NCBI GenBank assembly: GCA_038245905.1
Contig: JBBRRY010000011.1
Span: 1 to 64,000, forward strand
Reading direction: 5' to 3'
DNA from: Thermoanaerobaculia bacterium
GTDB lineage: Bacteria; Acidobacteriota; Thermoanaerobaculia; UBA5066
DNA length: 64,000 bases
Shown here piece by piece: positions 42,415 through 59,670 of the stretch. The position numbers and the translations under genes were made by a program. Position 1 is the stretch's first letter. Every line of letters begins with the position of its first letter. The notes under the pieces are model-generated. The model searched no databases. It was not told where the DNA came from and saw nothing but the letters and a program-made list of their open reading frames with translations.

Positions 42415-42873
42415 TCAGGGGCCGGCGAGGCGCCCCCGGCTTGCAGCCCACTCTCCGAGCGCCTGCCGCCACTCCCATGCATGCCCGGGCGACAGCACGA
42501 ATTCCACGGGCTCGCCCCGGACGGGAGTGACACGGAGGATTTTGTTTCGGAGGAACCCTCTCTGCGCCTGCGTCCTCTCGTCTGTCTCGAGACGTCGGAT
42601 TTCTTCGAAGGTGAATGAGCCCGGAGCAGAGAGCAGGGCCTGCCAGGCGAGGCCCGCGGGCGTCAAGGCAACGGTCCCGGGCAGGAGCGCGCGCCCACGC
42701 CCATTCACGACCTGGCACGGCGTTCCAATCCGGACCACCCCTCCTAACCCTTTTAGGAAAATCTTCCGCCGGCGCCGAGCAACCAGCCTCGTCGCGAGGA
42801 CAAATGCCCCCGTGAGAAGCAAAACAATTCCAACAGTGACGCCCGCCGCGAGCAGCAGACTCGCCGCGCTCAA
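42415..42873 (-). CDS. Hypothetical single-TM protein
   Basis: TTG start overlaps the vWA gene stop (TTGA); hydrophobic N-terminus then RRRRK. Confidence 0.55.
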   Translation of the reverse strand: MSAASLLLAAGVTVGIVLLLTGAFVLATRLVARRRRKIFLKGLGGVVRIGTPCQVVNGRGRALLPGTVALTPAGLAWQALLSAPGSFTFEEIRRLETDERTQAQRGFLRNKILRVTPVRGEPVEFVLSPGHAWEWRQALGEWAASRGRLAGP

Positions 42874-43958
42874 CGGAAGAGCTTTTTCCGGTTCCGGATG
42901 TAGTCCCGGAACACGAACGACGCGAGGTCCGTCGGCGAGGCGTAGTACGCCCGGCCGCGCGCGACCTTCGTGAGCGTGTCGACGAAGTCCACGAGCGCGG
43001 GGTCCGTCGCGATCATGAACGTCGTGAGCTGGATGCCGTCGCGGCGGAGCTTTTCGGCCTCCTCGAGCGTGCGGTTCACGATCTTGAGGTCGAGGCCGAA
43101 CGGGTTCTTGTAGAGGCGCCCGCCCTCGTGGATGCACGAAGGCTTGCCGTCCGTGATCATGAAGATCTGCCGGTTGCGCGAGCGGCGCCGCATGAGGAGC
43201 TGCCGCGCCACGCCGAGCCCGGCCTTCGTGTTCGTGTGGAACGGCCCGACCTGGGCCTTGCTCAGCTCCTCAAGGGGGACGGGCTTCGCCTCGTCGCCGA
43301 AGAGCACGATGTCGATCGTGTCCTTCGGGTATTTCTGGAGGATGAGCTCCGTGAGGGCGAGGGCGACCTTCTTGGCCGGCGTGAAGCGATCCTCGCCGTA
43401 GAGGATCATCGAGTGGGAGATGTCGATCGCGATCGCGGTCGCGCAGGCGCTCTGGTGCTCCACGTCGAAGACCTCGAAGTCGGAGGGCGTGAGCGCGAGA
43501 TCGTCCGGATCGCGCCGGGCCGCGTTCGCGACGGTCCGCATCCCGTCGAGGCGCGCGATGTCGTCGCCGAACTCGTAAGGGCGCGTTTCGGGCAGCGTCT
43601 CGGCGCCCGTGCCGGCGCGCGGGATGGAGTGAAGTCCCGGGCCAGCCTTCTGGAGCGACGAGAAAATCTCCTCGAGCGCGTTCCGCCGGATGCGGCGCTC
43701 GCCGGAGCCCATGAGCGTCAGGTTGCCGTCGCCGTCGCGGCCCACGATGCCCTGCTTCTCGAGAGCGGCGCGGAACGCGTCGAGGTCGATGTTCTTTCCG
43801 ATTATTCCGCGGCGCTGCAGCTCCTGCATCCACTGCATCGCCTGCTCCACGTCGCCGCCGAGACGCGAGACGAGGTCCAGAAACAGCTTCAGGAGCTCTT
43901 CGTACGTCAGAAGCGACTGGAGGAGGTCGAGGGGCAGCTCGCCGTAGCGGTAGTCCAC
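42870..43958 (-). CDS. vWA domain protein (partner type of Mg-chelatase-like AAA ATPases)
   Basis: MIDAS DISHSM, TNTKAG, ITDGKP; RPYEFGD. Confidence 0.85.
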   Translation of the reverse strand: MDYRYGELPLDLLQSLLTYEELLKLFLDLVSRLGGDVEQAMQWMQELQRRGIIGKNIDLDAFRAALEKQGIVGRDGDGNLTLMGSGERRIRRNALEEIFSSLQKAGPGLHSIPRAGTGAETLPETRPYEFGDDIARLDGMRTVANAARRDPDDLALTPSDFEVFDVEHQSACATAIAIDISHSMILYGEDRFTPAKKVALALTELILQKYPKDTIDIVLFGDEAKPVPLEELSKAQVGPFHTNTKAGLGVARQLLMRRRSRNRQIFMITDGKPSCIHEGGRLYKNPFGLDLKIVNRTLEEAEKLRRDGIQLTTFMIATDPALVDFVDTLTKVARGRAYYASPTDLASFVFRDYIRNRKKLFR

Positions 43959-44009: not shown

Positions 44010-45563
44010 ATGGAGGAGCCGGCCCAGGACGTCCTTTCCCGCATGCGGGGCGACTGGGACCGGCGTGCCGAGGAGGATCACAAGCTCCACATCGCGACGG
44101 GTCACGCGGGCTCCGAGGAGACGTTCCGGGCGTCGGGCGCGCAGGATCTCGACGCGATCGTTCTCGACGGCATCGTCCTCGACCCGTCCGCGGAGATCCT
44201 CGAGATCGGGTGCGGCGTCGGCCGCCTCCTCGTCCCTCTCGCGGAGCGCGTCGCGGTCGCGCACGGCGTCGACATCTCGTCCGTGATGATTGGGAAGTCG
44301 AAGGAGTATTTCCGCGGCTCCGCGAACGTGAAGACCGCGCTCACGGACGGCACGTTCTCCCATCTGCCGGACGCCTCCCTCGACTTCGTCTTCTCTTTCA
44401 TCGTCTTCCAGCACATCCCCGAGCGCGCGCCCATCCGCCGCTACGTCGAAGAGGCCGCGCGCGTCCTGAAGCCGGGAGGCGTGTTCCGCTTTCAGGTGGA
44501 CGGCAGGTGGTGGTGGAAGCACGGGGAAGAAGGCCCCGGCACGTACGACGGCGTGAAGTTCTCGCCGGAGGATGTCTCGGCGCTGCTCGAAGGAACGCCT
44601 TTCGCGGTCGTCGACTCATGGGGGGCCGAGGGTCACTACCACTGGATCACGGCGCGGAAGGCGGGAGAGGGCGCGGCGGTTTCGGTCAACCCCCGGGGGT
44701 GGGATCTCCCGCTTCTCGAATCACTGCTCCGGCGTCTGCGCTCGTTTCGCCCGAAGAAGGCCGCCGCGACGATCCAGGGCGGCGCCGGGTCGCTGCGGCC
44801 TCATCTGCTCCGGCTCGTGAAACGGCTCTCCAAGGCTGATTCGTCGACGTTCGTCATCGAGGCGTATCGCGCTCTTCTCGGGAGCACGCTCGACGACGAG
44901 GGACGCGCGTTCCACGTCGCGATTCTCGAGAAGGGATTCGAAGACCGCGCGGCGCTCCTCGACACCGTCACGACCGCGCGAGGGTTTCTGGATCTCTACC
45001 GCCCGTTCGTGTCCGATGTCCCGTGGTACGCCGCATGCGAGATCTTCATGCGTCTCGGCGAGTCGCCGCGGACCGGGGAATTCTTCGAGCTGGTGAAAGC
45101 GGTGGCTTCCCGGCTCGAGGGGCTTTCTCCGCGCGCCGCGATTGCCTTCGGCTTCAGGACCATTCTGGGCTTCGAGGCCGACGAGGCGGCGTACCGCCAC
45201 CATCTGCCTCTCGTCGCGGAGCATCCCGACGGACACCGGCTTCTCATCCGGAATCTGCTCGCGAGTCGAAAGGACCCGGTTCCTCAGGCCGCAACAGTCC
45301 TGGGCCGTGCGCTGCTGCCGGGAGAATCGACGCCGGGCGAAGCGGCTCTAGCGGTGAAGATCCTGACCGAGGGCCTGGGTGTCACCGACGACCGCGCCTT
45401 CATCCGCCTTGCCTACGAACGGCTCTTCGGGCGCGCGGCCGACGCCGACGGAGAGGGCTTCTATCTCGGCAAGCTCGAGGAGCGGGAGCTTTCGCGCGCC
45501 GGCGTTCTCAGGGAGCTTCTCTGGAGCGACGAAGGACGCGCGCGACTCGAGCGCCTCGCATAG
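44010..45563 (+). CDS. Class I SAM-dependent methyltransferase with C-terminal DUF4214-like repeats
   Basis: LEIGCGVGR, GVDIS, DFVFS, LKPGG. Three repeats of type AYRxLLG/FGRxxDxEG. Confidence 0.8.
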   Translation: MEEPAQDVLSRMRGDWDRRAEEDHKLHIATGHAGSEETFRASGAQDLDAIVLDGIVLDPSAEILEIGCGVGRLLVPLAERVAVAHGVDISSVMIGKSKEYFRGSANVKTALTDGTFSHLPDASLDFVFSFIVFQHIPERAPIRRYVEEAARVLKPGGVFRFQVDGRWWWKHGEEGPGTYDGVKFSPEDVSALLEGTPFAVVDSWGAEGHYHWITARKAGEGAAVSVNPRGWDLPLLESLLRRLRSFRPKKAAATIQGGAGSLRPHLLRLVKRLSKADSSTFVIEAYRALLGSTLDDEGRAFHVAILEKGFEDRAALLDTVTTARGFLDLYRPFVSDVPWYAACEIFMRLGESPRTGEFFELVKAVASRLEGLSPRAAIAFGFRTILGFEADEAAYRHHLPLVAEHPDGHRLLIRNLLASRKDPVPQAATVLGRALLPGESTPGEAALAVKILTEGLGVTDDRAFIRLAYERLFGRAADADGEGFYLGKLEERELSRAGVLRELLWSDEGRARLERLA

Positions 45564-45616
45564 CGCCGCGACGCCCGTAGAATCGCGACGCATGCGCGCT
45601 CGCGGCATTTCTTGCG

Positions 45617-45997
45617 ATGGCCCTTCCGCCGGCACTCACTGCCTCGGCGAGACGCATCAAAATCGCGGGGCGTGGCTATCCGCTGGGCGCGGACGAATCC
45701 CTCGTAGGAATTCGCGGAGCCGACTACGTCGCCTCGATTCTGCGCATCCGAAAGGAACTTCCCGCCGACTCTGAATACCTTCTTCTCGCAGGCACGGACG
45801 GCGCCGATGTTTTCGTGCGGTTCGACCTCGCTCCCCGGCGCGCAATCTTCGGTGGGGAACCCAAAGACCTCGCTCACAACGTGACGGCCGCGAAACTCCC
45901 TGGGCTCCCTGAGTGGACGGTGATTCCAAGCCTGGTCGGGCCGGGCCCTCGTCTCGTCCGTACGCGCCTTCTTGCGGAAACGAAAGCGATCCCATGA
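45617..45997 (+). CDS. Small hypothetical protein coupled to the downstream GT-C gene
   Basis: Its stop overlaps the next ATG (ATGA). Homologous to the N-terminal half of 54556..55062 (YLL...VRxDLAPRR). Confidence 0.6.
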   Translation: MALPPALTASARRIKIAGRGYPLGADESLVGIRGADYVASILRIRKELPADSEYLLLAGTDGADVFVRFDLAPRRAIFGGEPKDLAHNVTAAKLPGLPEWTVIPSLVGPGPRLVRTRLLAETKAIP

Positions 45998-47958
45998 CGG
46001 TCGGCGCGCCCTTCGCGGCCGGTCTCGGTGGTGTGTTTCTGTTTCTCGCCGCGGGCCGCGGGCTCGTGGAGCTTCTTCCCGCTCTTCGGGAGCGTCCCCG
46101 CGCGGCGCGGCTCGGCTGGTCGTACCTCCTCGGCGTTGCGGCCGTGGCGGGCTCGACGTACCTTCTCGGAATCGCGTTCGACATTCGACTCAGACGCGCC
46201 GTACTGCTTGCACCCGTCGTCTGCCTCGTCGCGCTCGGCGTCGCCTCGAGGATTGTTCGGCGTCGAAGTGAAGCCCGCATCCACGCGTTCCATCCGCCGC
46301 GGGCCGGCGTTGTCGCGGCTCGAGTTGCTTTCGTGATTTCCGCGTGGATCGCCGTGGGCCTCTTCACGGAGGCCGTGACGCAGTCGAATCTGGGCTTTGA
46401 CGGCGAGATGACCTGGAGCGTGGTCGCGCGCTGGATCCGCGCCGAACGCAGCGTCACTCCGCGCGTCTTGTCGGATCCGCGCACGTTCGTATCGCACCCG
46501 CGCTATCCGATTCTCATGCCGATCGCGCAGGTAGTCGTGCAGGAGACGTTCGACACGAGCGACGACCGTCGTGCCGTCAAGCCTCTTTACGCCGCCTTCT
46601 TCCCGGCGCTGCTTCTCGTCCTTTTCGACGTTTCGCGCCGGCATGTCGGAACGTTCGCCGCCGCGCTCACCGTCGTTGCTTTCGCCACGGTGCCGGTGCT
46701 CGTCCTGTCAGACTTCGGCGGTGCGGATGGCACGTTCTCGGATGTTCCGCTGGGCGCATTTCTAGGCGGCGGATTCCTGCTTCTGCTCGGGCGCGTGCGC
46801 TGGTCGGAGGCAGTCGCTGCTGCGCTACTCCTCGGAAGCGCCGTGCTCACGAAGAACGAGGGGCTGCCCTTCGCCGCCGCCGCGCTCGTGGCAGTCGTGT
46901 TTCAGTCGCTCTTCGAGCGAGCGTACCGGCGTCGAACGCGCCTCGCCGCTCTCGGACTGGCCGCGGCCGCCGTGATCGCCGCGGGCCTGGCCCTCAGAGT
47001 TTGGCAAAGCCACATTCCACAGCGTTGGGACGAGGACTACGTGGGCCGGCTCGGCGAAGTGTCGCTCGCGGCGGAGGCCCGGGCTCGGCTTCCTCTCGTG
47101 CCGGCCGCGATCCTGAAAGAGATGGGGAACCCGGAGCATCTCGCCGGCATCGGCTTCGCCGGCGCGGTCATCCTCCTCGCGGGAGCCGGCGGCCTTCGAA
47201 GGAGAGTCGTTGGCCCGATCGTCCTGTGCGTCTATTTCTGTTTCGGAGCCTACGTTCTCGCGCTCCTCCTGACGACCTGGCCGGGAGTGGAGCAGGTTCA
47301 TCCCACGTGGTACCGGTTCTTGATGCAGGTCTCATTGCCCCTCGGAGTTCTGTTGGCGCTCGCCCTTCGAGAGGCATGGCGGGCACGACTCGCGTGGATG
47401 CGACCCGCGACGACGCCGATGTCGTCGATGCAGATCCGGAACGACCGGATATCCGGATTCGCCCCGCGCGCTGCCCTCGTTTTCCTGGGCTTCGCGTTGT
47501 CCCCCGTATTGCTCGTCCTGCTCCTCGCGCTGCACAAGCACGGCCTGGAAACGTCCTTGGCGTCGCCTGTGGCGGCGCGCGCTGTCGCCCCCGCTCCGAC
47601 CGCTTCCCCGTGGAGAGAGGATGCGTCACTGATTGGGGGCGTGGACGAGCCCTCGGAGGGCGCATCCGTTCGAGGCCGCCTTGTCGTTCGAGGCTGGGCA
47701 CGCATTCCGGGACAGGATCTCGAGGTCACCGCACTCGTGGACGGAAAAGAGCGGGTCCCTCTGGGGCTCCGCCGCTTTCGGCGACCCGACGTTCAAAGAG
47801 TCCTTCCCGCGCTTGGTGATTGCGGGTCGGCCGGCTACGAGCTCGCGTATCCCTACTTGGCTGATGACGATGGGCCGCACGATCTTCAGGTGATCTTCCG
47901 AACAACGGATGGAAGGGAGCGACATTACCCAGCGAGAAGATTCGTCTGGAATCCGTGA
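45994..47958 (+). CDS. GT-C/ArnT-like membrane glycosyltransferase with C-terminal Ig-like GW-RPDV domain
   Basis: About 13 TMs; loop GFDGEMTW..SHPRYP; TKNEG; C-terminal GGVDEP...GWARIPG...RPDV...RHYP. Confidence 0.7.
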   Translation: MTVGAPFAAGLGGVFLFLAAGRGLVELLPALRERPRAARLGWSYLLGVAAVAGSTYLLGIAFDIRLRRAVLLAPVVCLVALGVASRIVRRRSEARIHAFHPPRAGVVAARVAFVISAWIAVGLFTEAVTQSNLGFDGEMTWSVVARWIRAERSVTPRVLSDPRTFVSHPRYPILMPIAQVVVQETFDTSDDRRAVKPLYAAFFPALLLVLFDVSRRHVGTFAAALTVVAFATVPVLVLSDFGGADGTFSDVPLGAFLGGGFLLLLGRVRWSEAVAAALLLGSAVLTKNEGLPFAAAALVAVVFQSLFERAYRRRTRLAALGLAAAAVIAAGLALRVWQSHIPQRWDEDYVGRLGEVSLAAEARARLPLVPAAILKEMGNPEHLAGIGFAGAVILLAGAGGLRRRVVGPIVLCVYFCFGAYVLALLLTTWPGVEQVHPTWYRFLMQVSLPLGVLLALALREAWRARLAWMRPATTPMSSMQIRNDRISGFAPRAALVFLGFALSPVLLVLLLALHKHGLETSLASPVAARAVAPAPTASPWREDASLIGGVDEPSEGASVRGRLVVRGWARIPGQDLEVTALVDGKERVPLGLRRFRRPDVQRVLPALGDCGSAGYELAYPYLADDDGPHDLQVIFRTTDGRERHYPARRFVWNP

Positions 47959-47982
47959 GCGGATGATCAGGTTGCTGCGGGT

Positions 47983-50025
47983 TTACGGCCCCCTCTTCCA
48001 GGTGAACTTCCGCCACGGGTAATGACGCACGCGGTCGCCCGGTCCGCGGAAGACCACGAAAAGCTCGTGCTCGCCCTCGTCGCCGGGCTGGAAGGCGAAG
48101 ACCTGTTCGTAGCCGGCGGTCCCGCAATCTCCGAGACTCGGCACGACGGCCTGTACGTCTTCCCGCGGGAATCGCGCCTCGTGGAGCGGAACGCGCGGCG
48201 CCTTGTCGACGAGAACGGTGACCGCGAGATCCTGTCCCGGAATGCGTGCCCATCCGGTCACGGTCAGGTTTCCCGTCACGATGGATTCCTCAGCCGGCCG
48301 GTCGATCGAGCCGGTGAGATCTGCCGATTCTCTGCCGGGCGAACCCAGCGTGTCGTCTCCGATTGGGCTCTTCTCGAATGCCCGTGCTCCCGGCTCGGTT
48401 TTCACCACCGCGTAGAGCATGTCGTCGGGAAGGAAGCGGCGGACGTAGAGCAACCGGCCCGATTCGAGGCCCGCGGCGACGAGCGCCGCCGCCGTCCCGC
48501 GCTGCTCGTCGTTCATGCGCCTCGGCCTCACGGTCACGTACGACACCGGCACGGCTTCGAGAGCGTCGAGCAGATCCTTGGCCTTCCCCTCCACGAGGAG
48601 ATCGTGCAGGCTCTGGGCGAGCGGGGTCTGGAAGCCGGAGTAGCCGTTCACGAGCGGCTTCCAATGGTCCGCCGCGCGAAGCACGTGGAGCGCGTTCGTC
48701 TCGTTGAAGGCGTCGGGCAGCTCCCACAGGCCGCCTGCCATCGGCGTTGCGGCGAGGAAACGCGTCATCGGGTCCGGATCCGGCTCCCCGCGGTTGAGAT
48801 ACAGCGGAGCCACGCGGTCCTCGAACAGGAGCGCGCCCGCGAGACACGCCGCGATTCCGAGGCCGAACACCTTTGAGCGCCGCCGCGACCAGGATTCGAC
48901 GAGTGCCGCTGTCGCCACGGCGGCGAGGAGCGCGAGCCCAAGGTCCGCGACCATCGCCCACCTCACTGGCGCGCGGATCGCGCGAAACGGCGGGAGAAGG
49001 AAAAGCAGGCGGTGAAACGGTGTCGACATGCCAAAGGACCCGACGAACCCGAGCCCCGCGAAGAGGAGGGCCGTGGTCGCCGATTCGGAACGATCCCGGA
49101 GGAACAGTACGATACCGAGAATCGCAAGCGCGAGGAGGAGGAAGCCGGGGAAGAGGCAGAACTCGCCGCGGGACGGGTTCTCACCCATGCCGCGCCAGAG
49201 CTTCAAATTGAAGTCAGGTGTCAGCCAGTGGATTGGCGCAGCAGAGTAGAACGCGGCCTCTTCCGGCCCGCGCTGGATGCCATAGAGCTTTCCGACCTGC
49301 TTGTACGGAAGGAAGAACGGCATTAGGAGGAGCGACGCGGCGAAGAGAGCCGCCGCCGCCCGTCCCCACGCCCGGCGAGCCGCTGGTTCGGTCCTGAGGA
49401 AGAGGAGCGCGCCCATCACGGCGGTCGGCACCGAGCCAAGGAGGAACCAGTGGATGCTCGAGACACCGCTCATGAAAAAGGCCGTGCCGAGCCAGGCCGC
49501 GCGCGCCCACGTGCGGCGGCGCGCGAAGAGAACGACGGCCTCGGCGAGAAGCGGCATCCAGCCCGCAAACACGTACGAGAGATGCGGAATGTGATGGAAC
49601 CGGTAGGGCACGAACGCGAACGCGACGCCCGCGACCCACGCGGCCGGTGTCGAACTCGTGAGCGTGCGCGCGAGGCGGAACGCCCCGAATCCGCTGAACG
49701 CGAATCCGAACAGCATCGCCAAGCCGTGAACCGTCAGGGGCGGAAGGCCCGCGGCGAAGGCCGGAAAGAAGAGGAGCGCGATGCCCCACTGGTGCTCGGA
49801 GAGCGCGAGCGTGTAGCGATACGGAAAGAAGATGTTCGCGTCGAAGAGATGCAGCGGGTCGTGGAACGTCTGGTGGGCGTCCCACGCGAGGATGTAGGAA
49901 TTCAGGTACGAGTCCCCCGGGTCGAACGAGCTGTCGCGGATGTGGGCCGCCCACGGCCAGGTCATGAGGACCGTCAGGAGAACGAAGGCGGCGAGCACGC
50001 CAGCGTCACGCGCGGCACGCTTCAC
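47983..50025 (-). CDS. YfhO-like GT-C membrane protein with C-terminal Ig-like GW-REDV domain
   Basis: GTG start (GTGA overlap). DPGDSYLNSYILAWD..DANIFFP..LALSEH, RAPVRW, VNGYSG; shared C-terminal domain. Confidence 0.72.
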   Translation of the reverse strand: MKRAARDAGVLAAFVLLTVLMTWPWAAHIRDSSFDPGDSYLNSYILAWDAHQTFHDPLHLFDANIFFPYRYTLALSEHQWGIALLFFPAFAAGLPPLTVHGLAMLFGFAFSGFGAFRLARTLTSSTPAAWVAGVAFAFVPYRFHHIPHLSYVFAGWMPLLAEAVVLFARRRTWARAAWLGTAFFMSGVSSIHWFLLGSVPTAVMGALLFLRTEPAARRAWGRAAAALFAASLLLMPFFLPYKQVGKLYGIQRGPEEAAFYSAAPIHWLTPDFNLKLWRGMGENPSRGEFCLFPGFLLLALAILGIVLFLRDRSESATTALLFAGLGFVGSFGMSTPFHRLLFLLPPFRAIRAPVRWAMVADLGLALLAAVATAALVESWSRRRSKVFGLGIAACLAGALLFEDRVAPLYLNRGEPDPDPMTRFLAATPMAGGLWELPDAFNETNALHVLRAADHWKPLVNGYSGFQTPLAQSLHDLLVEGKAKDLLDALEAVPVSYVTVRPRRMNDEQRGTAAALVAAGLESGRLLYVRRFLPDDMLYAVVKTEPGARAFEKSPIGDDTLGSPGRESADLTGSIDRPAEESIVTGNLTVTGWARIPGQDLAVTVLVDKAPRVPLHEARFPREDVQAVVPSLGDCGTAGYEQVFAFQPGDEGEHELFVVFRGPGDRVRHYPWRKFTWKRGP

Positions 50026-52409
50026 GGTTTCCAGACGAATCTCCTCGGCGGATAGTGGCGCTGCCTGCCGTCGGGCGCGCGGAACAGCACCTGGATCTCG
50101 TGGGGCCCTTCGTCGCCGGTCTCGAACCTGTACGTCGCTTCGTAACCCGCGGTGCGGCAGTCGCCGAGCGACGCCACGGCCGCCTGGACGTCGAGGCGCG
50201 GCACGCGCGATCCGTGCGTGGCGGAACGCTCCTCGCCGTCGATCGTGACTGTGACGTGAAGGTCCTCGCCGGGGATTCGCGCCCAACCCGAGACCCGCAA
50301 GGGACCCGTCAGGACGGCGTCCTCTACCGGCACGTCGATCGAGCCGACCAGCCCCGCGTCCTCGCGATAGAGCGCGTGGGGCGCGAGCGGGCCGCGGGCC
50401 GGGGTCCACGGGAGAGGATCGAGAGCCTTCGCCCCCGGCTCGTTTTTCACGACGGCGTAGAGGTCGTTCTTCATGCGGCCGTCGAAGCGCCTCACGAAGA
50501 GGAGACGCCCCGACCCGAGGCCGCGCGTCAGCCACTCGCGGTGCGGGCCGCGTGACTCGGGAGACAGCCACGAGTCATGCACGAGGATGTAGGACGTCGG
50601 GATCTTCTCGAGGAAGTCGAGGAAGTCGTCGGGGATCGGCACCTTCCGCTCGTCCTCCTCGATGCGGCTCACGAAGGGAGACGCGAAGCCCGAGACGGCC
50701 GTGACGAGGGGCTTTCGGTGATCCGCGGCGCGAAGCACGGCGCGGTAGTTGCCGTGGGCCTCGGTGCCTGCCGGAAGCTCCACGAGGCCGCCCTTCATCT
50801 CGGTCTTCGCGAGGAAGAGCGTGGCCTCGTCGGGATCGGCCTCGCCTCGGACGAGCTCGAGCGGCGCGGCCCGGTCCTCGAAGAGGAGGCCGAGGCCGGA
50901 GAGGACGAAGACGAGCGCCGCGAGACGCGTCGTTCCCCGCCGGCGCTGCCACGCGTCCGCGAGGGCCTTCGCCCCGACGCCCGCGAGGATCGCGAGGCCG
51001 AGATACGCGAGCATGGCCCAGCGAGCGGGCGCGCGGATGCTCCGGAAGAGGAACACCGTCTCGAAGAGCACGCGGTGGAACGGAAAGTTCAGGCCCAGGG
51101 ATCCGAAAAAGCCGATGACAGCCCAGATGCCGCCGACGAGGATCGCCTCGGGCCGGCGGAGAAGGCGGAGGCTGTCCGGAATGTTCTTCCCGCGGGTGAA
51201 CGGGAGCGCCTTCGGATACTGGATCCAGCAGCGGACAAGAAAGGCGAAGGTGAAAAGCGCGAGCGCCCGTGTGGAGTCCGTCGCGCGGAAGACTTCCTTG
51301 CCGCCGAGGCGGATGTGGATGCCGGTCGGACTCGAGGCGAGGAGCGCAATCGTCCCGCCGACGACCGCGAGTCCGTCCAGCCAGGGGAGCGCCCGGAGGG
51401 CGCGCGGCCCGGGGGCCGGCATTTCCTCCGGCGGCGTGGAGAGACCCGGCTCCGCACGCGTCAGGAGCAGGGCCCCGAGCGGCAGGAGAAAGAGCAGCAG
51501 CCCGGGGAACAGGCAGCGCTCGTTCGGCGCGGGCCACTCGGTGAAACCCCGCCACGTCCGGTTCCACGCGTCCATGTTGAGCCAGTCCTTCGGCAGAGCG
51601 GACAGCTCGCGGGTCTCGCCCGTCCCCCGCGAGAAGCCGTAAAGTTTCGCGGCTCTCTGGTAGGGAACAAGGAACGGCAAGAGCGCGAGGCCGGCGATCC
51701 CGAGCGCGAGGGCGCCGCGCTTCAGCCCGGCCCGGTCCCGGACCGCGTCGTTCCGGAACCCGAGCGCGAGGCCGGTGGCCGCGAGCGGGATCAGCGTCAG
51801 GATCAGCCAGTGGATGACCGAGAGGCCGTTCAGGAAGAACGCCGCGCCCAGCCACGCCGCGCGCCGCCGCGTTCTCTCGCGCACGAAGAGGACGAGCGCC
51901 TCGAGGAGGATCGGGATCCAGCCCGAGAAAAGGTACGGAAGGTGCGGCATCTGCCCGAAGCGGTACGGCACGAAGGCATACGCGATTCCGGAAACCCACG
52001 CCGCTCCCGTGGATCCCGTGAGCGTGCGCGTGAGGCGGAACGTTCCGTAACCGGCGAGCGTGAAGCCGAGGAGCGTCGCGAGGCCGTGCACGGTCAGCGG
52101 GCGCGCGCCGAGCGCGAAGAGCGGGAAGAACGGCAGCGCGATGCCGTAGTTGTGCTCCGAGAACGCGAGACCGTACTTCATAGGGAAGAAGACGTTCCCG
52201 TGAAACAGGTTCAAGGGGTCGTGGAACGTCTGGAAGAAATCCCACCAGAGCGTCCAGGAGACGAGATAAGGATCGCCGTTGTCCGAGGCATGGTCGCGGA
52301 GGTGGAGAACCCACGGCCACGTCATGACGGACGTCAGGGCGATGAAGCCGAGAAAAATGAGCGACTCGCGCCCGAACGTGCGCATCCGGATCCTGATTTC
52401 AGGGGGCAC
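50022..52409 (-). CDS. YfhO-like GT-C membrane protein with C-terminal Ig-like GW-RLDV domain
   Basis: Paralogue of the previous gene: DNGDPYLVSWTLWWD..GNVFFP..LAFSEH, RAPARW; shared C-terminal domain. Confidence 0.72.
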   Translation of the reverse strand: MPPEIRIRMRTFGRESLIFLGFIALTSVMTWPWVLHLRDHASDNGDPYLVSWTLWWDFFQTFHDPLNLFHGNVFFPMKYGLAFSEHNYGIALPFFPLFALGARPLTVHGLATLLGFTLAGYGTFRLTRTLTGSTGAAWVSGIAYAFVPYRFGQMPHLPYLFSGWIPILLEALVLFVRERTRRRAAWLGAAFFLNGLSVIHWLILTLIPLAATGLALGFRNDAVRDRAGLKRGALALGIAGLALLPFLVPYQRAAKLYGFSRGTGETRELSALPKDWLNMDAWNRTWRGFTEWPAPNERCLFPGLLLFLLPLGALLLTRAEPGLSTPPEEMPAPGPRALRALPWLDGLAVVGGTIALLASSPTGIHIRLGGKEVFRATDSTRALALFTFAFLVRCWIQYPKALPFTRGKNIPDSLRLLRRPEAILVGGIWAVIGFFGSLGLNFPFHRVLFETVFLFRSIRAPARWAMLAYLGLAILAGVGAKALADAWQRRRGTTRLAALVFVLSGLGLLFEDRAAPLELVRGEADPDEATLFLAKTEMKGGLVELPAGTEAHGNYRAVLRAADHRKPLVTAVSGFASPFVSRIEEDERKVPIPDDFLDFLEKIPTSYILVHDSWLSPESRGPHREWLTRGLGSGRLLFVRRFDGRMKNDLYAVVKNEPGAKALDPLPWTPARGPLAPHALYREDAGLVGSIDVPVEDAVLTGPLRVSGWARIPGEDLHVTVTIDGEERSATHGSRVPRLDVQAAVASLGDCRTAGYEATYRFETGDEGPHEIQVLFRAPDGRQRHYPPRRFVWKP

Positions 52410-52460
52410 GGACGGGATGATATCGGCGCGGAGCGGAATGCGTATGCTCTCCGTGCCCTC

Positions 52461-54554
52461 ATGTCCGTGAGCCCTGCGTCCCACCGCGAACGGGCCCTCG
52501 TCGCCGCCGCGTTCGCCGTCCTCGCGCTCCTGCGCCTCGCGACGCTCGCGCCCGACCCGTGGGAGTGGGACGAGGTTCTCTTCATGGAGGGCGTGCGTGA
52601 CGGACTCGACGTCCGCGTGAACCATCCCCACGCCCCGGGCTACCCGGTCTTCATCCGGATGGGGCAGGGGATTCGCGCGCTCGGCGTCGAGCCGTTTCGC
52701 GCGACGACGCTCGCGGGTGCGCTCGGCGGCTATCTCTCGGTTCTCGCCCTCTACCTCCTCCTCCGGGAGCTCGGCTCGCGCCGCGCGTGGGCGCTCGTCG
52801 GCGCGCTGTTTTACGCGCTGACGCCGTCCGTCTGGCTGCACGGCGTGCGACCGCTCTCGGATGGGCCGGGGGCCGCGGCCGCGCTTTTCGCCGCGCTGTT
52901 CCTGGTGCGCGCGATCGCGGGAAGGGGTCGATTCGACCTCGTCTGGGCGGCGGCATTCACGGCGATCGCGGCGGGCGTCCGCCCGCAGGTGGGTCTCGCG
53001 CTTCTTCCGGCGGCGGGAGTCGCAGCTTTTCTCTCCTTTCGCCGCGAGCGCCGCGCGACGATTCTTGCCCTCGCCGTCCTGACAGGCGTCCTGCTCTCGG
53101 CTGCGATCTGGATTCCGACCTTCAGGAGCTCCGGAGGCTTCGCCGTCTGGAAGGCCCGGTTGGACCAGCAGATGCAGTACGTGACGGAGTTCGACAGCCC
53201 GAAGCTCCGCGACATCGAGCGTCCGGCATTCTGGAAGCGCTGGTGGCTGGACCCGGTTGGCAATGAGGTGGCCGCCCTTGGGCTGCTCGCGCTGGGCCTC
53301 GCGGGCGCTGTACTCGAACGAAGGAAGGCCGGGCCGATCCTTCTGGTGTTCGTTCCCGTCACCGTGCTGACGCTCGCCGTTCTGGGGGTCGCCTCGGCAC
53401 CGCGCTACGTCCTCGCATTCTGGGCGGCGCCCTGCGCCCTCGCGGCGTTTGCCCTCGAGTGGGCGTCGCGCCTCCGCGGCGGGAGAATCGCCGCGCCGGC
53501 AATGGCCATGCTCTCCCTGGCGGCGTTCGCAGCACTCGGCGTGCCCGCGATCGTCGAAGTCGCGACGCGCCCGAGCCCGTCCGTCGCAGTCATGAAGGCT
53601 CTGAAGGCCGAGGGGCTCGCGGCCCGCGACGTCTACGTGACCGAGCCGCTGCGCGTGCACGCCCACGAGTTCATCGGGGGAGGAGTCAGCGTCGTGGACG
53701 AGCTCGTCCCGCTGAGCATTCCACCGGGGGCCGTCCTCGTCGGAGCCGACGACCGGGCCTTCGGCCTCTCGCCTCAGCGCGTCTTTGATTTCGAGACCCC
53801 GCGCCTCGCTCGGATCTCGCGGGGCCGCTACCTTCGAAGCGAGATCTTCGAGGGGCGCGCCGGCGCCGGGGTATTCGCGCCCGCCGTGACGCGTCCCGGA
53901 TGGCAGCTGCACGGCCGCGTCGGGCTGCCGGAAGGAACGACGCTCTCGGTGCGTTCGGCGGGGTCGGCGGACGTCGCGTTCACGGGAACCGCCGCACGCG
54001 ATCTGGCCGAGATCGAGATCAAGACCTCTTCCGGCGCGCGTCGCGCGGAAGTCGCCGCGAACCGCGACGAGGACGTGTCTTTCGCCGCCTTCCCCGACGC
54101 GATGGAGCGGCTGTTTTCGGTCACGTCCCTCCGCGGCGTTGCCATCCTCGACGGATTCCGGATCACGGCGAAGGATTCGGGCCGGCCCACTTTTCGTTTC
54201 GACGACGGGATTCCCGCATCGATCGACGAGCCGGTCGAGGGCGCGCACGTCTCGTCGCCGTTCCGCGCCCGCGGCTGGTGCCAGGAGCGCGGCGGCGGAC
54301 GCGTGGACCCGCTCGAGTTCCGCCTCGACGGGTTTCTCCTCGAGGACGCACGCGTGACGCGGACGCCTCGACCCGACGTCGCCGCTGTCCTTCCCACGAT
54401 TGGTGACGCGAGCGCGGCGGGTTGGGAGGCTCTTCTCTCGACGAAGGTGCCCGACGGCCGCCATGTCCTGACGGTGACGTTCCAGGCCGGCGATCGCCGC
54501 CGCGTCTACCCGCCGCGCACGATCGAGATCGTCGCGGCAGGCCGGACGCGCTGA
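52461..54554 (+). CDS. GT-C (DUF2723/PMT-like) membrane glycosyltransferase with C-terminal Ig-like GW-RPDV domain
   Basis: EWDEVLF..HPHAPGYP loop, SD after a TM, many TMs, PRY; C-terminal SIDEP..GWCQERGGGR..RPDV. Confidence 0.72.
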   Translation: MSVSPASHRERALVAAAFAVLALLRLATLAPDPWEWDEVLFMEGVRDGLDVRVNHPHAPGYPVFIRMGQGIRALGVEPFRATTLAGALGGYLSVLALYLLLRELGSRRAWALVGALFYALTPSVWLHGVRPLSDGPGAAAALFAALFLVRAIAGRGRFDLVWAAAFTAIAAGVRPQVGLALLPAAGVAAFLSFRRERRATILALAVLTGVLLSAAIWIPTFRSSGGFAVWKARLDQQMQYVTEFDSPKLRDIERPAFWKRWWLDPVGNEVAALGLLALGLAGAVLERRKAGPILLVFVPVTVLTLAVLGVASAPRYVLAFWAAPCALAAFALEWASRLRGGRIAAPAMAMLSLAAFAALGVPAIVEVATRPSPSVAVMKALKAEGLAARDVYVTEPLRVHAHEFIGGGVSVVDELVPLSIPPGAVLVGADDRAFGLSPQRVFDFETPRLARISRGRYLRSEIFEGRAGAGVFAPAVTRPGWQLHGRVGLPEGTTLSVRSAGSADVAFTGTAARDLAEIEIKTSSGARRAEVAANRDEDVSFAAFPDAMERLFSVTSLRGVAILDGFRITAKDSGRPTFRFDDGIPASIDEPVEGAHVSSPFRARGWCQERGGGRVDPLEFRLDGFLLEDARVTRTPRPDVAAVLPTIGDASAAGWEALLSTKVPDGRHVLTVTFQAGDRRRVYPPRTIEIVAAGRTR

Positions 54555-54555
54555 C

Positions 54556-55062
54556 ATGCGAATGTCTTCGAACATCCTCGCCCGGCGCTCCCCGCTCGGG
54601 GTCGTTGCGGTCGCTGTCCTCGGCGTCTGTGTGCTGCGTTCCGTGCCGGGAGCGTGGGTGCGCGCGAGTGCCGAGGTCGCGGAGCTCCTGCGCCATGCGG
54701 GCGAATCGTTCGCCGAAACGCGCGTAAGGGTTTACGGCAAGGCGTATGCCTCGCGCATCGACGAGATCCGCGGAAAGATCCCAGAGACTGGCGCGTATCT
54801 CCTCGTCGACGCCGCTGGGGCCACGGACGGGAAACCTCTGGTCCGGCACGATCTCGCTCCCCGCCGGCCAGTGGCGCCTTACCTCATCGCGGCCGCAGGC
54901 CCGATCGGAATCGCTCTCGCGGCGTACGCCGTCCACTTCAACCCGCCCGCTCTCGCGAGCACCACCTGGACGCGATTCCTGATCCAGGCGTCCATACCTC
55001 TCGCGGCGGTTTTCGCCGCGTGCGCACGCGAGGCGTCGAGGAGACTGCCGACTACTTCATGA
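54556..55062 (+). pseudogene. In-frame chimera: small partner protein fused to the last TMs of a GT-C gene
   Basis: The N-terminal half matches 45617..45997. The C-terminal TWTRFLIQASIPLA..REA matches TWYRFLMQVSLPLG..REA in 45994..47958. Confidence 0.6.
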
Positions 55063-58018
55063 GATGGAATCGGCGAGGGGCAAGCGTGCGGCGGCGGCCA
55101 TCGGGCGTCTCGAGCTCCACGACGAGAGTGTGATCACCCATCGATAGTCTGCTGACGTCCAGATCGACCGCGAAGCCGGTTTCCTTCGGCACGACGACGT
55201 ATGGCAGCGCCGATACGACGTCCGGTCGATCCGGACGGTTCAAGCGGACCGGATTCGCATCAAGCCCGTCGATGGCAAAGCGGACGGGATCGATCCGTCC
55301 TCCTCCCCGCTCGCGGCACCAGCCGACGGCCGTGAGCACGTTTCCGCGGATCGAGCTCCCCTCGGCTGGCACCTCGAGATAGCCCGGAAGCTCTCCGGAT
55401 CCTCTCCGTGCAGTGGGTCTCGACGTATCGAGGGTGATCTCGAGCGCCGCGATCCGAGTCGCCCCGCTCTGGCCCGGTTCGGCCGGCGCGATTGAAATGC
55501 GGTTACGCCCGGCCCGCCAGATGGAGTCTTCGATCCGGAACCGCAGCGGGCCTGCCTCGCGGGCAATCTCTCCTGCTGGATGGCCGTTCACGCTGACGCG
55601 CAGATTCCGACGGGGCGATTCAAGAGCCTCCTCTTCGAGGGTCAACGACGTCGCCGGCGCGTCGAGGGGCGGGACGATGAGGTCAGCGCCGTCCAGCGGC
55701 ACCAGGAGGGCGGCCCGGCCGTCGCCATCGCGTTTTTCCCGCCGCGAAGAGTTCAGAAGGAAGTACTCCGACTCCGGACGGTCAAAAGACACCCTCAGTG
55801 TGTCCTCTCGCGTCGAATCTTCGCGGACCGCAAAGACTTCCATCCTCGAATCGCCGAACACGCGAGGGAAACCCTCGGGCTCGATCGCGATCCAGTCCCT
55901 TTCCGGCAGCTCGTCTCCCGTCCTCTCCACCGCAACGAATGCGACCGCGAGCAGTCGGAGGTTTTCACGCCACTCCTTGCGGTCGACACGGTGCCGCGGG
56001 AACTCCAGCGATCCTTTCCACGAAAAGAAAGATGCCCCGAGCGGCGGCGACAGCCCTCGCTCTCCAGGACCCAAATACGTGGGAACGTAGAGCACCCTGT
56101 TCTGGAGCTGTCGTCCGAAGAAGAGGAATGGCTGATTTCCGCCGCAGAAGGCAATCGTCGTTCCGGGGGACGCCGTGCGATCGAGAAACGACGCTGCGGG
56201 ATTTGTCTCCAGCTTTCGCGATAGATAGCGCTCGAAGAGCCGTCCCGTTCCGACCGAGCCGAGTGCGAGAAATACTGCCCCCGCGGCCAAGCTACCTCGC
56301 GCCAAAGTGAGCTTTCGTCGCGGAACCTGCCGCCAAAAGGCGTACCCCATAACGATCACGGCGCTCACCGCGCCGACCGCCAGCACACGACCCAGACCGC
56401 CCTTTGTGCGCTGCGAAGCGACCAGGGTAGCCAGAACGACGAGAGCGACCGTCAGCCTGCCGAATCGGGCAGCCCCTGGGGGCAGTCGTTCGAGAAGCCA
56501 CGCGACAGCCAGCCCCGTTAGGGCAAGGCCGCCGAAGACGTATCGGATATCCCGGTGATCGGCCATCAATCGAACAAACGTCAGATAGAAGATGGCAGGA
56601 AGAGAAAGCAGGATGATCTCTCCCGCCTCGACCCTTGATGTTCCCTGTGCTCGAGTCGGTCGCAGCCTCGACACGGTCCAGGAGAGGAACGCCATGGCAG
56701 GAGCGAGCACCGCGCCGGGCAGGAGGATCCAACGGAACAACGGCCCGAGAAGGTCGATGCGGTCCCAGAGGAAACGGAGCGGTTCCAAACCCGATCGTCC
56801 TCGGATGGCGAGACCCGCGATCGTGTCATCCGCCCATCCTTGAAAAATGCGATGGCCTCCGATGCTGAGGGTCGCCGGGAAGAGAGGATTCCCGGATCCG
56901 ACCGCATTCCGCAGATACGTGTAGCCGCCGACGCCGAACATCGTCGCGACTCCGACAAGGAAACCGAGACTGACCGGCCACACCGCAGCGCGACGGTCCT
57001 CCGGCGGTGAGCTCCATAGCCCGGAAGCCAAGCACGCGCCGGCGAGGAGGAGGAGCGGAGGGAGGAACATCGCTCCTGTGTACTTGGTTCCAATCATGAG
57101 GCCGAGCGCGGCGCCGAGGAAAACCGCGCGCCCGACAGTCGGGCCGCGTCGCAAGAGCAGGGCGGCGCACGCGCTCGCCAATGTGCAGAAGGCCAGAGCG
57201 TGATCGTTGCCGGCTCCGAGCATCCCCGATGGGAAGACGCGCGGGCTGGCCGCATAGAGAAGAACCGCAACGGCAGCCGCCCCCGTGCGGAGCGAGAGGA
57301 GGCGCGCAAGGGAGGCAAGCGCGACGAGGGCGCCGAGCGCGAACGGCGCCTCGCTCCAGCGGGCCAGAAAGTCGATGCCGTCGAGCGGAAGCAGGAGAAG
57401 GAGGGAGAAGAGCTCCCCACCGATCGGATAGAAGGCGGTGCTGCCGTCACCGACAGGGAATTTGATACTGCGGAGGTCGTGCCATTGAAACCATGTCGCG
57501 ACCGCGGACAGATGGTAGGAGGTGTCGTCGTAGCCGTGGGCGCCGGGGGGCGCGTTCCGCTCGGAGATCACGGCCACAAGGAGGGCGACCCAGAAGAAAG
57601 CCAGGGTGCCGAGAATCGCCCATCGTTCCAACCGATCGATCTCTGGGGTGGTTCGCTTGCGAGGCACCGCCGTAGCCGACCGGAAAGGAGCGGCTACCAA
57701 CAGAGCGAGCGCCACGACAATCAGCACGACGCGCGACGTCAAGAGCCCGAAGTGGCCCAGCGTGGTTGCGATGAGCATCCAGCTTGCGACCAGGACCACG
57801 AGAGCCGCCGTCAGGGTCGTTGCGCGATCCTCGTCGGGAACGAGGAACCTGCCGAGACGAAGGGAGAGCCTGCTGATTCCGAGAAAGAACACGGCCGCCA
57901 GCGCGACCTTCGCGGCCAACGGAAAGAGAGACACTTCGAGAGCACCGAGCACAAGCAGGCCGGCCGACGCCACATCGAGTAACGAGGATCGAGCCTGGGG
58001 CGTTCTCAAGGTCAACAA
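55052..58018 (-). CDS. Large GT-C-type membrane glycosyltransferase with periplasmic domains and C-terminal Ig-like GW-RPDV domain
   Basis: GYDDTSYHL, FYP, GND, GTK, RNAVGSGNPLFP; many TMs; C-terminal GYLEVP..GWCRERGGGR..RPDV. Confidence 0.7.
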   Translation of the reverse strand: MLTLRTPQARSSLLDVASAGLLVLGALEVSLFPLAAKVALAAVFFLGISRLSLRLGRFLVPDEDRATTLTAALVVLVASWMLIATTLGHFGLLTSRVVLIVVALALLVAAPFRSATAVPRKRTTPEIDRLERWAILGTLAFFWVALLVAVISERNAPPGAHGYDDTSYHLSAVATWFQWHDLRSIKFPVGDGSTAFYPIGGELFSLLLLLPLDGIDFLARWSEAPFALGALVALASLARLLSLRTGAAAVAVLLYAASPRVFPSGMLGAGNDHALAFCTLASACAALLLRRGPTVGRAVFLGAALGLMIGTKYTGAMFLPPLLLLAGACLASGLWSSPPEDRRAAVWPVSLGFLVGVATMFGVGGYTYLRNAVGSGNPLFPATLSIGGHRIFQGWADDTIAGLAIRGRSGLEPLRFLWDRIDLLGPLFRWILLPGAVLAPAMAFLSWTVSRLRPTRAQGTSRVEAGEIILLSLPAIFYLTFVRLMADHRDIRYVFGGLALTGLAVAWLLERLPPGAARFGRLTVALVVLATLVASQRTKGGLGRVLAVGAVSAVIVMGYAFWRQVPRRKLTLARGSLAAGAVFLALGSVGTGRLFERYLSRKLETNPAASFLDRTASPGTTIAFCGGNQPFLFFGRQLQNRVLYVPTYLGPGERGLSPPLGASFFSWKGSLEFPRHRVDRKEWRENLRLLAVAFVAVERTGDELPERDWIAIEPEGFPRVFGDSRMEVFAVREDSTREDTLRVSFDRPESEYFLLNSSRREKRDGDGRAALLVPLDGADLIVPPLDAPATSLTLEEEALESPRRNLRVSVNGHPAGEIAREAGPLRFRIEDSIWRAGRNRISIAPAEPGQSGATRIAALEITLDTSRPTARRGSGELPGYLEVPAEGSSIRGNVLTAVGWCRERGGGRIDPVRFAIDGLDANPVRLNRPDRPDVVSALPYVVVPKETGFAVDLDVSRLSMGDHTLVVELETPDGRRRTLAPRRFHLMK

Positions 58019-58115: not shown

Positions 58116-59633
58116 TCAGACCACCGCGGCCAGCTCGTAGAGGTAGTCGACGAACGAGCGCGCGGCGCCGTCGTAGCCCGACACCCTCGGATTCGTCGAC
58201 TCGATCACGAAGTACTCGTCGGGCGCGTGCGCGCCGCTGCCGTGGCCGAGGCCGTGGTGGCCCGAGGCTAGCTTGAGCGGTTCGCCCGTGAAGACGTAGC
58301 CGGGGTACGAGCCAGCGTTCCGGACCCAGAGGAACGGATCGAGACCCGCCTTCTTGTAGACGGACATCTGCGCGCGGATGAGCGGCGCGTCGGGGGACGT
58401 CTCCGTCGGGCCGTAGCCGCCCGAGACGTTGACCTCGATGTCGCCGAAGCCGCGCTTTTGGAGATGCGCCTTGAGCGCCGCGATCGCGCCGTCGAACGTC
58501 ATGTCGGGCACGAGGCGCAGGTCGAGCTTCGCGACGGCCTTGTTCGGGAGCATCGTCTTGCCGCCCGGGCCCATGTAGCCGCCGACGAGGCCCTCGATGT
58601 TCACGGTCGGTGAGAAGGTGAGCCGCTCGAGCGACGCGCGCCACGAGTCGTCGTGCACCCAGCGCGTTGCGCCGAGCATCCTCTTCGCCGTCGCTTCATC
58701 GAGCCGCTTCGCAGCGGCGTCGAGGATCGCGGTCTGTGCTGCGTTCGGCGGCTTGGCGGCCGCCGCGAAGCCGTCGATCGCCGGGTCGCCGTCCGCGGTC
58801 ACGAGAGTCGCGAGCGCCTGCACGAGATGGAACGCCGGGCTGTCGAGCCGCGCGCGGTTCGCGGAGTGGACGTCCTTCGAAGGGCCGCGGCCCCACTTCG
58901 CACCGCTCGAGACAAGCTCGCACTCGACGACGCCTTTGGCGCCGAGAGAGACCGTGACGGAGCCGTCGGGGTCCTGGCCGGCGCCCGGCATGAAGACGCC
59001 CATCGTCTTGCCGAGAGCCGCAAGCACTTCCGGCTTGCGGACGATCTCTGGAATGTGCGGCGAGCCGATTTCCTCCTCACCCTCGGCGACGAGGACGAGG
59101 TTGACGGGGAGCTTCACGCCCGCGCCCTTGAAGGCGTGGAGAGCGGCGAGAAAAGCGGACTCGGGGCCCTTCTGGTTCACGGCGCCGCGTCCGACGAGGA
59201 CCCTGCCGAAGCCGGCCTTGTCGACGATCGACGCGTCGAAGGGCTTCCCGGTCGTCCACTCTGCGGGGTCCGCCTGTTTGACGTCGTACATGAAGTAGAG
59301 GCCGACGGTCCGGGGAGCACCCGCGTCGAGCGTCGCGAAGACGCCCGGGACGCCGGACGTCGGCATCCGGACGGCGGTCTGGAAGCCGGCGTCCTTCGCG
59401 AGCGCGATCATCTGCTGGCAGCCCGTTTCCATCCCACGGTTCTCGGCCGCGATGGAGGGATTCCGCACCCAGTCCTGAAGCCGCGCCACAGCTTCGCCGT
59501 GGCGCTTCTCGATTTCGGCGTAGATCTTTGCGCGGTCGTCGGCGGCGAAGGCGAAGCGGGGGAGGGAAGAAGCTGCTGTCACCGCTGCCGTGGCGGCGGC
59601 CGCACCGAGGAGGTCTCTTCTGTTCATTGGCAT
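58116..59633 (-). CDS. Tat-exported M20/M25/M40-family peptidase
   Basis: Twin-arginine signal MNRRDLLG; MYDVKQ, GRGAVNQKG, EGEEEIGS, AHAPDEY. Confidence 0.87.
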   Translation of the reverse strand: MPMNRRDLLGAAAATAAVTAASSLPRFAFAADDRAKIYAEIEKRHGEAVARLQDWVRNPSIAAENRGMETGCQQMIALAKDAGFQTAVRMPTSGVPGVFATLDAGAPRTVGLYFMYDVKQADPAEWTTGKPFDASIVDKAGFGRVLVGRGAVNQKGPESAFLAALHAFKGAGVKLPVNLVLVAEGEEEIGSPHIPEIVRKPEVLAALGKTMGVFMPGAGQDPDGSVTVSLGAKGVVECELVSSGAKWGRGPSKDVHSANRARLDSPAFHLVQALATLVTADGDPAIDGFAAAAKPPNAAQTAILDAAAKRLDEATAKRMLGATRWVHDDSWRASLERLTFSPTVNIEGLVGGYMGPGGKTMLPNKAVAKLDLRLVPDMTFDGAIAALKAHLQKRGFGDIEVNVSGGYGPTETSPDAPLIRAQMSVYKKAGLDPFLWVRNAGSYPGYVFTGEPLKLASGHHGLGHGSGAHAPDEYFVIESTNPRVSGYDGAARSFVDYLYELAAVV

Positions 59634-59670
59634 GGGGCGGAGTCTACCGCCGGGTCTATGCTCTCCCACG

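Follow-up and report, generated by a model that had tools for sequence, protein, structure and literature searches.

Between a gene for a VWA-domain protein and a gene for an M20 peptidase, eight genes occupy positions 44010 to 58018 of a 64,000-nucleotide stretch of DNA (hereafter the window), which covers the opening 64 kb of a contig 87.6 kb long (JBBRRY010000011.1) from an uncultured Thermoanaerobaculia bacterium of the soil type. From the VWA to the M20 gene, the order of this island is methyltransferase-DUF4214, s1, A, B, C, D, s2 and E. The products of A to E are five C-type glycosyltransferase (GT-C) enzymes from four unrelated lineages, and each of them ends in a flexibly tethered, extracytoplasmic immunoglobulin-like (Ig) domain of a divergent Big_7 type, here termed the tail. 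The host genome is a 3.8-Mb draft in 113 contigs with 68% G+C and an estimated completeness of 96%; near-identical proteins in public sources are labelled as proteins from metagenome-assembled genomes (MAGs) of Acidobacteriota or Thermoanaerobaculia.

Enzyme A (654 amino acids) is encoded at 45994..47958 on the plus strand, B (680 amino acids) at 47983..50025 and C (about 787-795 amino acids) at 50022..52409 on the minus strand, D (697 amino acids) at 52461..54554 on the plus strand, and the probable enzyme E (988 amino acids) at 55052..58018 on the minus strand. The starts of A and B agree with database gene calls; the start codon of C is uncertain (52409 or 52385), as is the TTG start of E. 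An initial annotation of the window had placed five polytopic proteins here and had quoted motifs from their first outer loops; all five open reading frames (ORFs) are open at these coordinates, all motifs are present, and the frames of the island genes are backed by codon-position G+C. The G+C content at third codon positions is 0.66-0.75 in s1, A and E (0.66 in s1), versus 0.84-0.89 in the remaining genes.

A shared tail on unrelated membrane enzymes

The C-terminal stretches of about 110 amino acids of A to E align with 17 invariant columns and a mean column identity of 58%. This alignment of the five tails locates them at 47629..47955 (plus strand) in A, at 47986..48321 (minus strand) in B, at 50025..50351 (minus strand) in C, at 54210..54536 (plus strand) in D, where the tail is of the class 'GWCQERGGG', and at 55055..55399 (minus strand) in E; a hidden Markov model (HMM) of the five tails scores those of C, D and E at 170, 139 and 145 bits, respectively. 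In pairwise BLASTP, with the five proteins alone as the database, the tails of A and B are the best pair (E 1.7e-36, 56% over 116 amino acids) and those of B and E the weakest (E 2e-6, 30% over 113 amino acids). Outside the tail, similarity among the five proteins is limited to B and C (about 50-54%), and when the A family is compared profile to profile with the B, D and E families, the tail alone aligns (probabilities of 99.35, 89.1 and 97.3%, respectively), so that a deep relationship in sequence among the membrane parts could not be shown. The invariant columns and these tail-only alignments confirm a homologous C-terminal domain in all five proteins, as had been initially proposed.

Searched against the 31,802 ORFs of at least 60 amino acids in the 3.8-Mb genome, the five-tail HMM matches only seven, five of which lie in this 12-kb stretch; the clustering of tailed ORFs, for which such a search had been suggested, is not due to chance. 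As the genome holds 22 PMT_2 matches, 18 of them above the cut-off, the tailed enzymes make up only a small subset of these genes, held closely together. The two remaining HMM matches are a B/C-like paralogue and a secreted repeat protein on other contigs. Recent gene conversion between the tails was rejected, as the DNA of the five tails shows no more than 40-63% identity (the longest exact run, between A and B, is 28 nt) and as tails group mainly by enzyme type.

The third B/C-like paralogue, and sixth tailed enzyme, is encoded outside the island at C1:307944-309857 on the plus strand (L019:11945-13858), among a multihaem cytochrome/TPR gene, helicase-nuclease genes and peptidases, with no glycan genes nearby. 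The secreted protein is encoded at C19:63486-65222 on the minus strand (L020:7487-9223), has a signal peptide and carries a tail-related domain of the Big_7 type four times; the four repeats are counted by eye, three of them score significantly, and the Big_7 score is 54.2 bits. Its gene stands directly upstream of a fragment of an EpsH-like exosortase gene (29.4 bits). Most of the relatives searched have an ORF of 575-610 amino acids with the same repeats, and conservation of the protein extends across the order.

A profile of the five tails gave 3348 matches at E <= 0.001 among 1.84 billion representative proteins. Nearly all of the best 150 of these carry 4-12 tandem copies, and the Big_7 arrays matched include peptidoglycan amidases. 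When matches from this representative library were scanned with Pfam Big_7 (PF17957, cut-off 24.1 bits), six of seven scored above the cut-off; one of three B/C homologues did so narrowly (25.0 versus 24.1 bits), and 4 of 46 members of the A family match Big_7 at E <= 0.01. In a Pfam scan of A to E themselves, no Big_7 match was found at E <= 0.1, so that the tail appears, on these profile scores, to be a divergent subtype and a distant relative of Big_7, which on the enzymes stands as a single C-terminal copy instead of in tandem arrays. The same profile matches led me to reject the tail as a new fold or family.

In AlphaFold2 models of A and B, the tail forms a beta-sandwich (residues 545-654 in A and 569-679 in B) behind a low-confidence linker, which in B has a predicted local distance difference test score (pLDDT) below 50 over residues 553-562. 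Both tails match the structure 6tn6 (Z 8.7 for A and 9.4 for B), and that of B matches a sulfite dehydrogenase with Z 8.9; at Z 8-9 the fold matches include Ig domains of ICAM and NCAM and the domain by which sulfite oxidase dimerises, but also accessory modules found on glycoside hydrolases. The tail lies outside the cytoplasm, because in the model of B it comes after the part that is aligned with the domain which STT3 and AglB have on the luminal or periplasmic side, because the related repeat protein on C19 has a signal peptide, and because secreted enzymes carry it as well. With the tail of B alone as the query, an SGNH/GDSL hydrolase and a PAP2 enzyme were found that both terminate in this domain (69-74% identity) and have N-termini that look, by eye, like signal peptides; the domain also occurs inside two tannase-like proteins. 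The Ig-like character of the domain, named in the initial annotation, and its outer location are thereby upheld. A complex prediction with two copies of the B tail (residues 564-680, 49-row alignment) gave a score of 0.00 and a mark of 0.42, and is counted neither for nor against binding.

Regarding the membrane parts, the model of A (pLDDT 83.9) has ArnT (GT83; 5f15 and 5ezm) as its best structural match, and the alignment with 5f15 (Z 21.6, root-mean-square deviation 3.9, 307 residues, 18% identity) covers model residues 107-461. As this alignment begins only at residue 107, three additional helices at the N-terminus of A precede the canonical first one; A is also without the periplasmic domain of ArnT and has instead one more helix, followed by the Ig tail. 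Both enzymes have an acidic residue in the first outer loop, which in A is D136 of the motif GFDGEMTW, invariant across 46 A-family sequences; the other motif quoted for A, HPRYP, is present as well. By sequence, A scores 17.8 bits against Pfam PMT_2 (PF13231), below the cut-off of 26.1 bits, although 14 of the 46 family members match PMT_2 at E <= 0.01 and some of them are named 'glycosyltransferase family 39 protein' by NCBI. Distant relatives of A (about 38% identity, 470-510 amino acids) have no tail.

For B, a model built on an alignment of 49 sequences (pLDDT 88.2, predicted template modelling score 0.80) returned only GT-C structures among the top 29 Foldseek matches. With a second aligner, yeast STT3 (8age) scores Z 23.1 over 468 residues (model residues 1-542), followed by AglB (Z 22.0), AftD (Z 20.8, root-mean-square deviation 4.5, 17% identity), PglB (Z 19.4) and AftA (Z 19.2); the best structural matches, over the membrane core and an alpha/beta outer domain, are therefore STT3, AglB and PglB of GT66 together with mycobacterial AftD, than which B is far shorter. 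Its paralogue C, which has an insertion, is similar to it throughout (54% identity over 287 and 50% over 387 amino acids, E 1e-95 to 1e-100); neither of the two matches PMT_2. The loop motifs are GDSYL and SEH in B and GDPYL and SEH in C, and D35, G37, D38 and Y40 are invariant in the 49 sequences of the B/C family. The WWDxG motif, located in the outer C-terminal domain, is a defining feature of the GT66 oligosaccharyltransferases; as none of the 49 sequences has WWD after residue 400, and B has no WW at all, I rejected B and C as oligosaccharyltransferases. DUF6311 (PF19830) was also rejected at the HMM level, with no match in the genome at E <= 1 and none in B or C at E <= 0.1. Some B/C homologues do have a precomputed DUF6311 match, as do 33% and 14% of the members of neighbouring Atlas clusters, a hint that gives a lead to a distant relationship only. 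B itself matches no Pfam or NCBIfam family and no PDB chain by sequence; B and C form an uncatalogued GT-C family with an STT3/AftD-like fold, for which there is no curated Pfam or NCBIfam model.

D belongs to PMT_2 (34.8 bits, cut-off 26.1), has a TMEM260-like match of 17.1 bits, below the cut-off of 24.2, and contains the motifs WEWDE and HPHAPGYP. E reaches 24.3 bits for PMT_2 and 17.1 bits for PMT; in the Atlas it is neighboured by clusters of PMT_2 proteins, 42% and 32% of whose members carry the family, and the loop GYDDTSYHL follows its fourth helix. The profiles of D and E gave nothing meaningful by sequence against solved structures, and neither did the profile of the tail. In D (WEWDE) and E (GYDD), an acidic residue stands at the same place in the first outer loop as in A and in B/C, and I infer that these residues are catalytic. 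GT-C enzymes are thus assigned by model (A and B), by paralogy to B (C) and by PMT_2 (D); E is probably a PMT_2-like GT-C enzyme and is the least certain of the five. The initial estimate of about four GT-C subfamilies stands with this reservation for E, and the fold of the GT-C_A class, a GT-C fold having been expected from the loops, was recovered in both proteins modelled.

Before the tail, D (residues about 420-580, positions 53700-54200) and E (residues about 600-870, positions 55400-56200) each have an extra outer region that is apparently beta-rich and has no Pfam match; in an E-like relative (L010:5784-9212), an ILEI domain (54.1 bits) stands at this position. For a genome of 3.8 Mb, 22 PMT_2 matches in addition to the B/C family amount to a very large set of GT-C enzymes, and several PMT_2 genes stand beside GT2 genes on contigs C2, C3, C4, C29 and C50.

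The island in related genomes

Tail matches were found in all 31 relatives searched, and the 19 genomes of the genus, this one included, have 4-11 tail matches each. In a draw of 151 genomes from the phylum, with 31 candidates scored per genome, only three have a tail match at E <= 1e-15: this genome, a congener and a genome of the same order, the last of which (G019) is unpublished, so that the statement on the order depends on an unpublished genome.

The site of the island was compared across 15 genomes of the genus. The two flanks, the VWA gene (42873..43958 on the minus strand; VWA_2, 35.8 bits) and the M20 gene (58119..59669 on the minus strand; Peptidase_M20, 49.9 bits), are kept at about 75-98% identity. 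The VWA gene, 90-98% identical in 14 of the 15 loci, always borders the variable stretch, and in 14 of the 15 the M20 gene stands at its opposite edge. Between these flanks, however, the gene content differs in every one of the 15 loci. The pool from which the islands are composed holds B, C, D and E, tailless A-like genes, the types F, G and S, and an E-like enzyme that bears ILEI. The tail is carried in the genus by at least seven types of membrane enzyme (A to G) and by a small type that is not an enzyme (S). Type F is PMT_2/GT87-like and is also found in two other families, type G has no Pfam match, and S is a small protein composed of an s2-like N-terminal part and a tail. The tailless A-like genes often have an s1-like ORF directly upstream (L008, L013 and L014).

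In a tree of 53 tails, from which matches covering 90 or fewer of the 109 profile positions were left out, the tails group mostly by enzyme type across genomes, and two classes are seen, A/B/C/F/G and D/E/S. The exception is the tail of the ILEI-bearing E-like enzyme, which nests among the tails of C. The tail is a movable module. At three loci (L018, at G007:C5:543000-560000, L010 and L009), several island genes are present in two to four collinear pieces in different frames.

What the tail and the island may do

AftD and Emb, which were also among the fold matches, carry carbohydrate-binding domains, and together with GT136 ORF12 they are earlier examples of GT-C enzymes that have a beta-sandwich at the C-terminus. 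ORF12 of Citrobacter youngae O1 is described as a GT-C enzyme that modifies O-antigen in the periplasm and has a C-terminal periplasmic beta-rich domain, labelled by its authors as a carbohydrate-binding module (PMC11127046). The initial annotation knew of no characterised system with such an architecture; ORF12 is a precedent for it. ORF12 and the three-component systems of GtrA, GtrB and GtrC form the closest described system, in which a polyprenyl-phosphate sugar decorates a finished surface glycan and serves as a source of serotype diversity. The likeness is one of architecture only and is taken from the description. In contrast to these systems, donor synthase and flippase are not encoded in the island locus, five enzymes of four lineages stand together, and they share one Big_7-like tail family that is also found on enzymes other than glycosyltransferases. 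Among the papers listed in literature searches, no GT-C enzyme with an Ig-like C-terminal tail was found for Acidobacteria, and nothing relevant on Big_7, DUF6311 or the glycosyltransferases of Thermoanaerobaculia. What is particular here is one tail family across many enzyme lineages and classes in one order, the mosaic island, and the uncatalogued B/C family; what gives the case its value is how widely the tail is shared, together with the variable island, rather than the combination of GT-C enzyme and beta-sandwich.

The reading that I favour, for which I see the probabilities evenly balanced, is that of a species-variable island for the modification of an envelope glycan, in which the tail is a shared module for acceptor binding or targeting. 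Other parts of the genome would encode the synthesis and flipping of polyprenyl-phosphate sugar donors. From these, each enzyme would transfer a sugar at the outer side of the inner membrane; the acceptor in the envelope would be the same for all of them, and is most likely a polysaccharide or a lipopolysaccharide-type glycoconjugate. The common Ig tail would bind or position this acceptor, or direct the enzyme to it, and would in relatives bring the esterase- and phosphatase-type enzymes to the same target. The cytoplasmic methyltransferase would probably methylate a sugar of the same glycan, and the exchange of cassettes in the interval bounded by the constant VWA and M20 genes would diversify the cell surface from species to species.

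Alternatively, the tails could bind each other or a common scaffold and so assemble a multi-enzyme complex for successive steps of one pathway. Their fold is similar to Ig domains of cell-adhesion molecules and to the dimerisation domain at the C-terminus of sulfite oxidase or dehydrogenase, many conserved charged residues are common to all five, and some of the matched GT-C structures were, according to their entry titles, solved as dimers (Pmt1-Pmt2, EmbA-EmbB and the Pmt4 homodimer). However, a fixed complex would not easily tolerate an enzyme set that differs in each of the 15 genus genomes, and the same tail, attached through a low-confidence linker, also ends soluble secreted hydrolases, which makes such docking rather unlikely. 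The initial annotation had the tail organise a multi-step pathway, for which no evidence was found; the mosaic is easier to reconcile with interchangeable cassettes, alternatives or add-ons than with a pathway of fixed successive steps. A tail that is passive, a domain for folding, stability or spacing that was spread by shuffling in one order, with enzymes that act on unrelated substrates and have become neighbours through duplication and recombination, would agree with how common Big_7-type domains are as spacers in secreted proteins (3348 clusters, nearly all tandem among the best 150), with the confinement of strong matches to a single order (3 of 151 genomes across the phylum), and with the finding that no ligand site was identified. 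I nevertheless regard it as unlikely that the tail does so little, since 17 columns, including W, H, D and several R, are invariant despite tail identities of 30-56%, since tails on unrelated enzymes can be about 70% identical, and since five of the six tailed enzymes are found at one locus while about 20 other PMT_2 genes have no tail.

In animals, TMEM260 and TMTC enzymes mannosylate IPT and cadherin domains, and the O-mannosylated parts of such proteins are Ig-like or IPT domains. It is conceivable that the island enzymes, in a TMEM260/TMTC-like manner, O-glycosylate Ig-fold surface proteins, such as the Big_7-repeat protein on C19, which is conserved through the order and is encoded beside the EpsH-like exosortase gene; the weak TMEM260-like match of D (17.1 bits against a cut-off of 24.2) would be in line with this. 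One study reports that families of the PMT type initiate O-mannosylation on distinct protein classes, cadherins and plexins among them (PMC11292533). However, the island enzymes match protein O-mannosyltransferase families only weakly, neither an acceptor sequon nor a substrate was identified, and the C19 protein is unlinked to the island and present in genomes with very different enzyme sets, so that I consider protein O-glycosylation improbable.

Several observations also weigh against the favoured glycan-modification island. The single shared acceptor is pure inference, as no acceptor, donor or glycan gene was identified. The fold of the tail does not discriminate between glycan and protein binding, and its profile has no sequence match to any solved carbohydrate-binding module. 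Genes for a polymerase, a flippase, a GT2 enzyme or a ligase are missing from the island; of the genome's 31 GT2 matches, not one is located on the 87.6-kb contig of the window, and a GtrA-family flippase was not found in the 96%-complete genome, in which other flippase families were not searched, so that donor synthesis would have to come from elsewhere. The GT-C assignment of D and E was made from sequence alone, as models were built of A and B only, and E falls below every curated cut-off. The topology of A, D and E is deduced, and crude helix counts from hydropathy were too unreliable to settle it. The fusions of tail and enzyme are mostly old, with occasional swaps, because the tails group by enzyme type and because of the 40-63% identity of their DNA in the window; shuffling is then for the most part not ongoing. 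Finally, the split island genes may be pseudogenes or errors of MAG assembly, and in the latter case part of the variation between loci would be an artefact.

More tentatively, and with doubt prevailing, the glycan-modification reading may be extended to a tail that acts as an 'address label' specific to one acidobacterial order, by which every extracytoplasmic enzyme that gains it would be bound to one and the same polymer of the envelope, with the VWA-M20 interval as a hotspot of cassette exchange at which the decoration of that polymer is rewritten from species to species. Carriers of the label would be at least seven GT-C lineages, an SGNH esterase, a PAP2 phosphatase and a tannase-like esterase. 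If true, this would be a case of modular surface diversification through a shared targeting domain and not through shared catalysis. Acidobacteria are abundant in soils and sediments, and almost nothing is known about how their surfaces are built. The tail offers a testable handle here, as it is a small soluble domain common to many envelope enzymes whose ligand would name their target, and the island is an example of surface-enzyme repertoires that are reshuffled at a fixed chromosomal site.

Accessory and neighbouring genes

The first gene of the island (44010..45563, plus strand) encodes an S-adenosylmethionine-dependent methyltransferase (Methyltransf_11, 66.1 bits) with a C-terminal DUF4214 region (46.6 bits, two stretches). 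Its presence at the flank of the set had been pointed out initially and is real, and the gene recurs beside tailed genes. It is present in 10 of the 15 genus loci and adjoins a tailed GT-C gene in all three loci from two other families (L004, L005 and L006); as L006 comes from an unpublished genome (G024), this adjacency stands on L004 and L005 alone. No description of the function of DUF4214 was found among the papers listed in the literature search.

In place of the one small partner gene that had been described, there are two. The gene s1 (45617..45997, plus strand, 126 amino acids), the stop of which overlaps the start of A, has no Pfam or NCBIfam match, and its homologue s2 (54556..55062, plus strand, 168 amino acids), which overlaps the 3' end of E with its own 3' end, is 40% identical to it over 53 amino acids. 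The N-terminal half of s2 resembles the type S proteins of relatives, s2 itself being without a tail, and its residues 137-162 are 54% identical over 26 amino acids to a helix of A (residues 438-463); judging from these partial likenesses, s2 is possibly a chimeric remnant of recombination.

Just past the M20 flank, a gene at 59590-62706 on the plus strand encodes a protein with Ser/Thr kinase, FGE-sulfatase-type and dienelactone-hydrolase-like domains, and it is kept at this place in several relatives.

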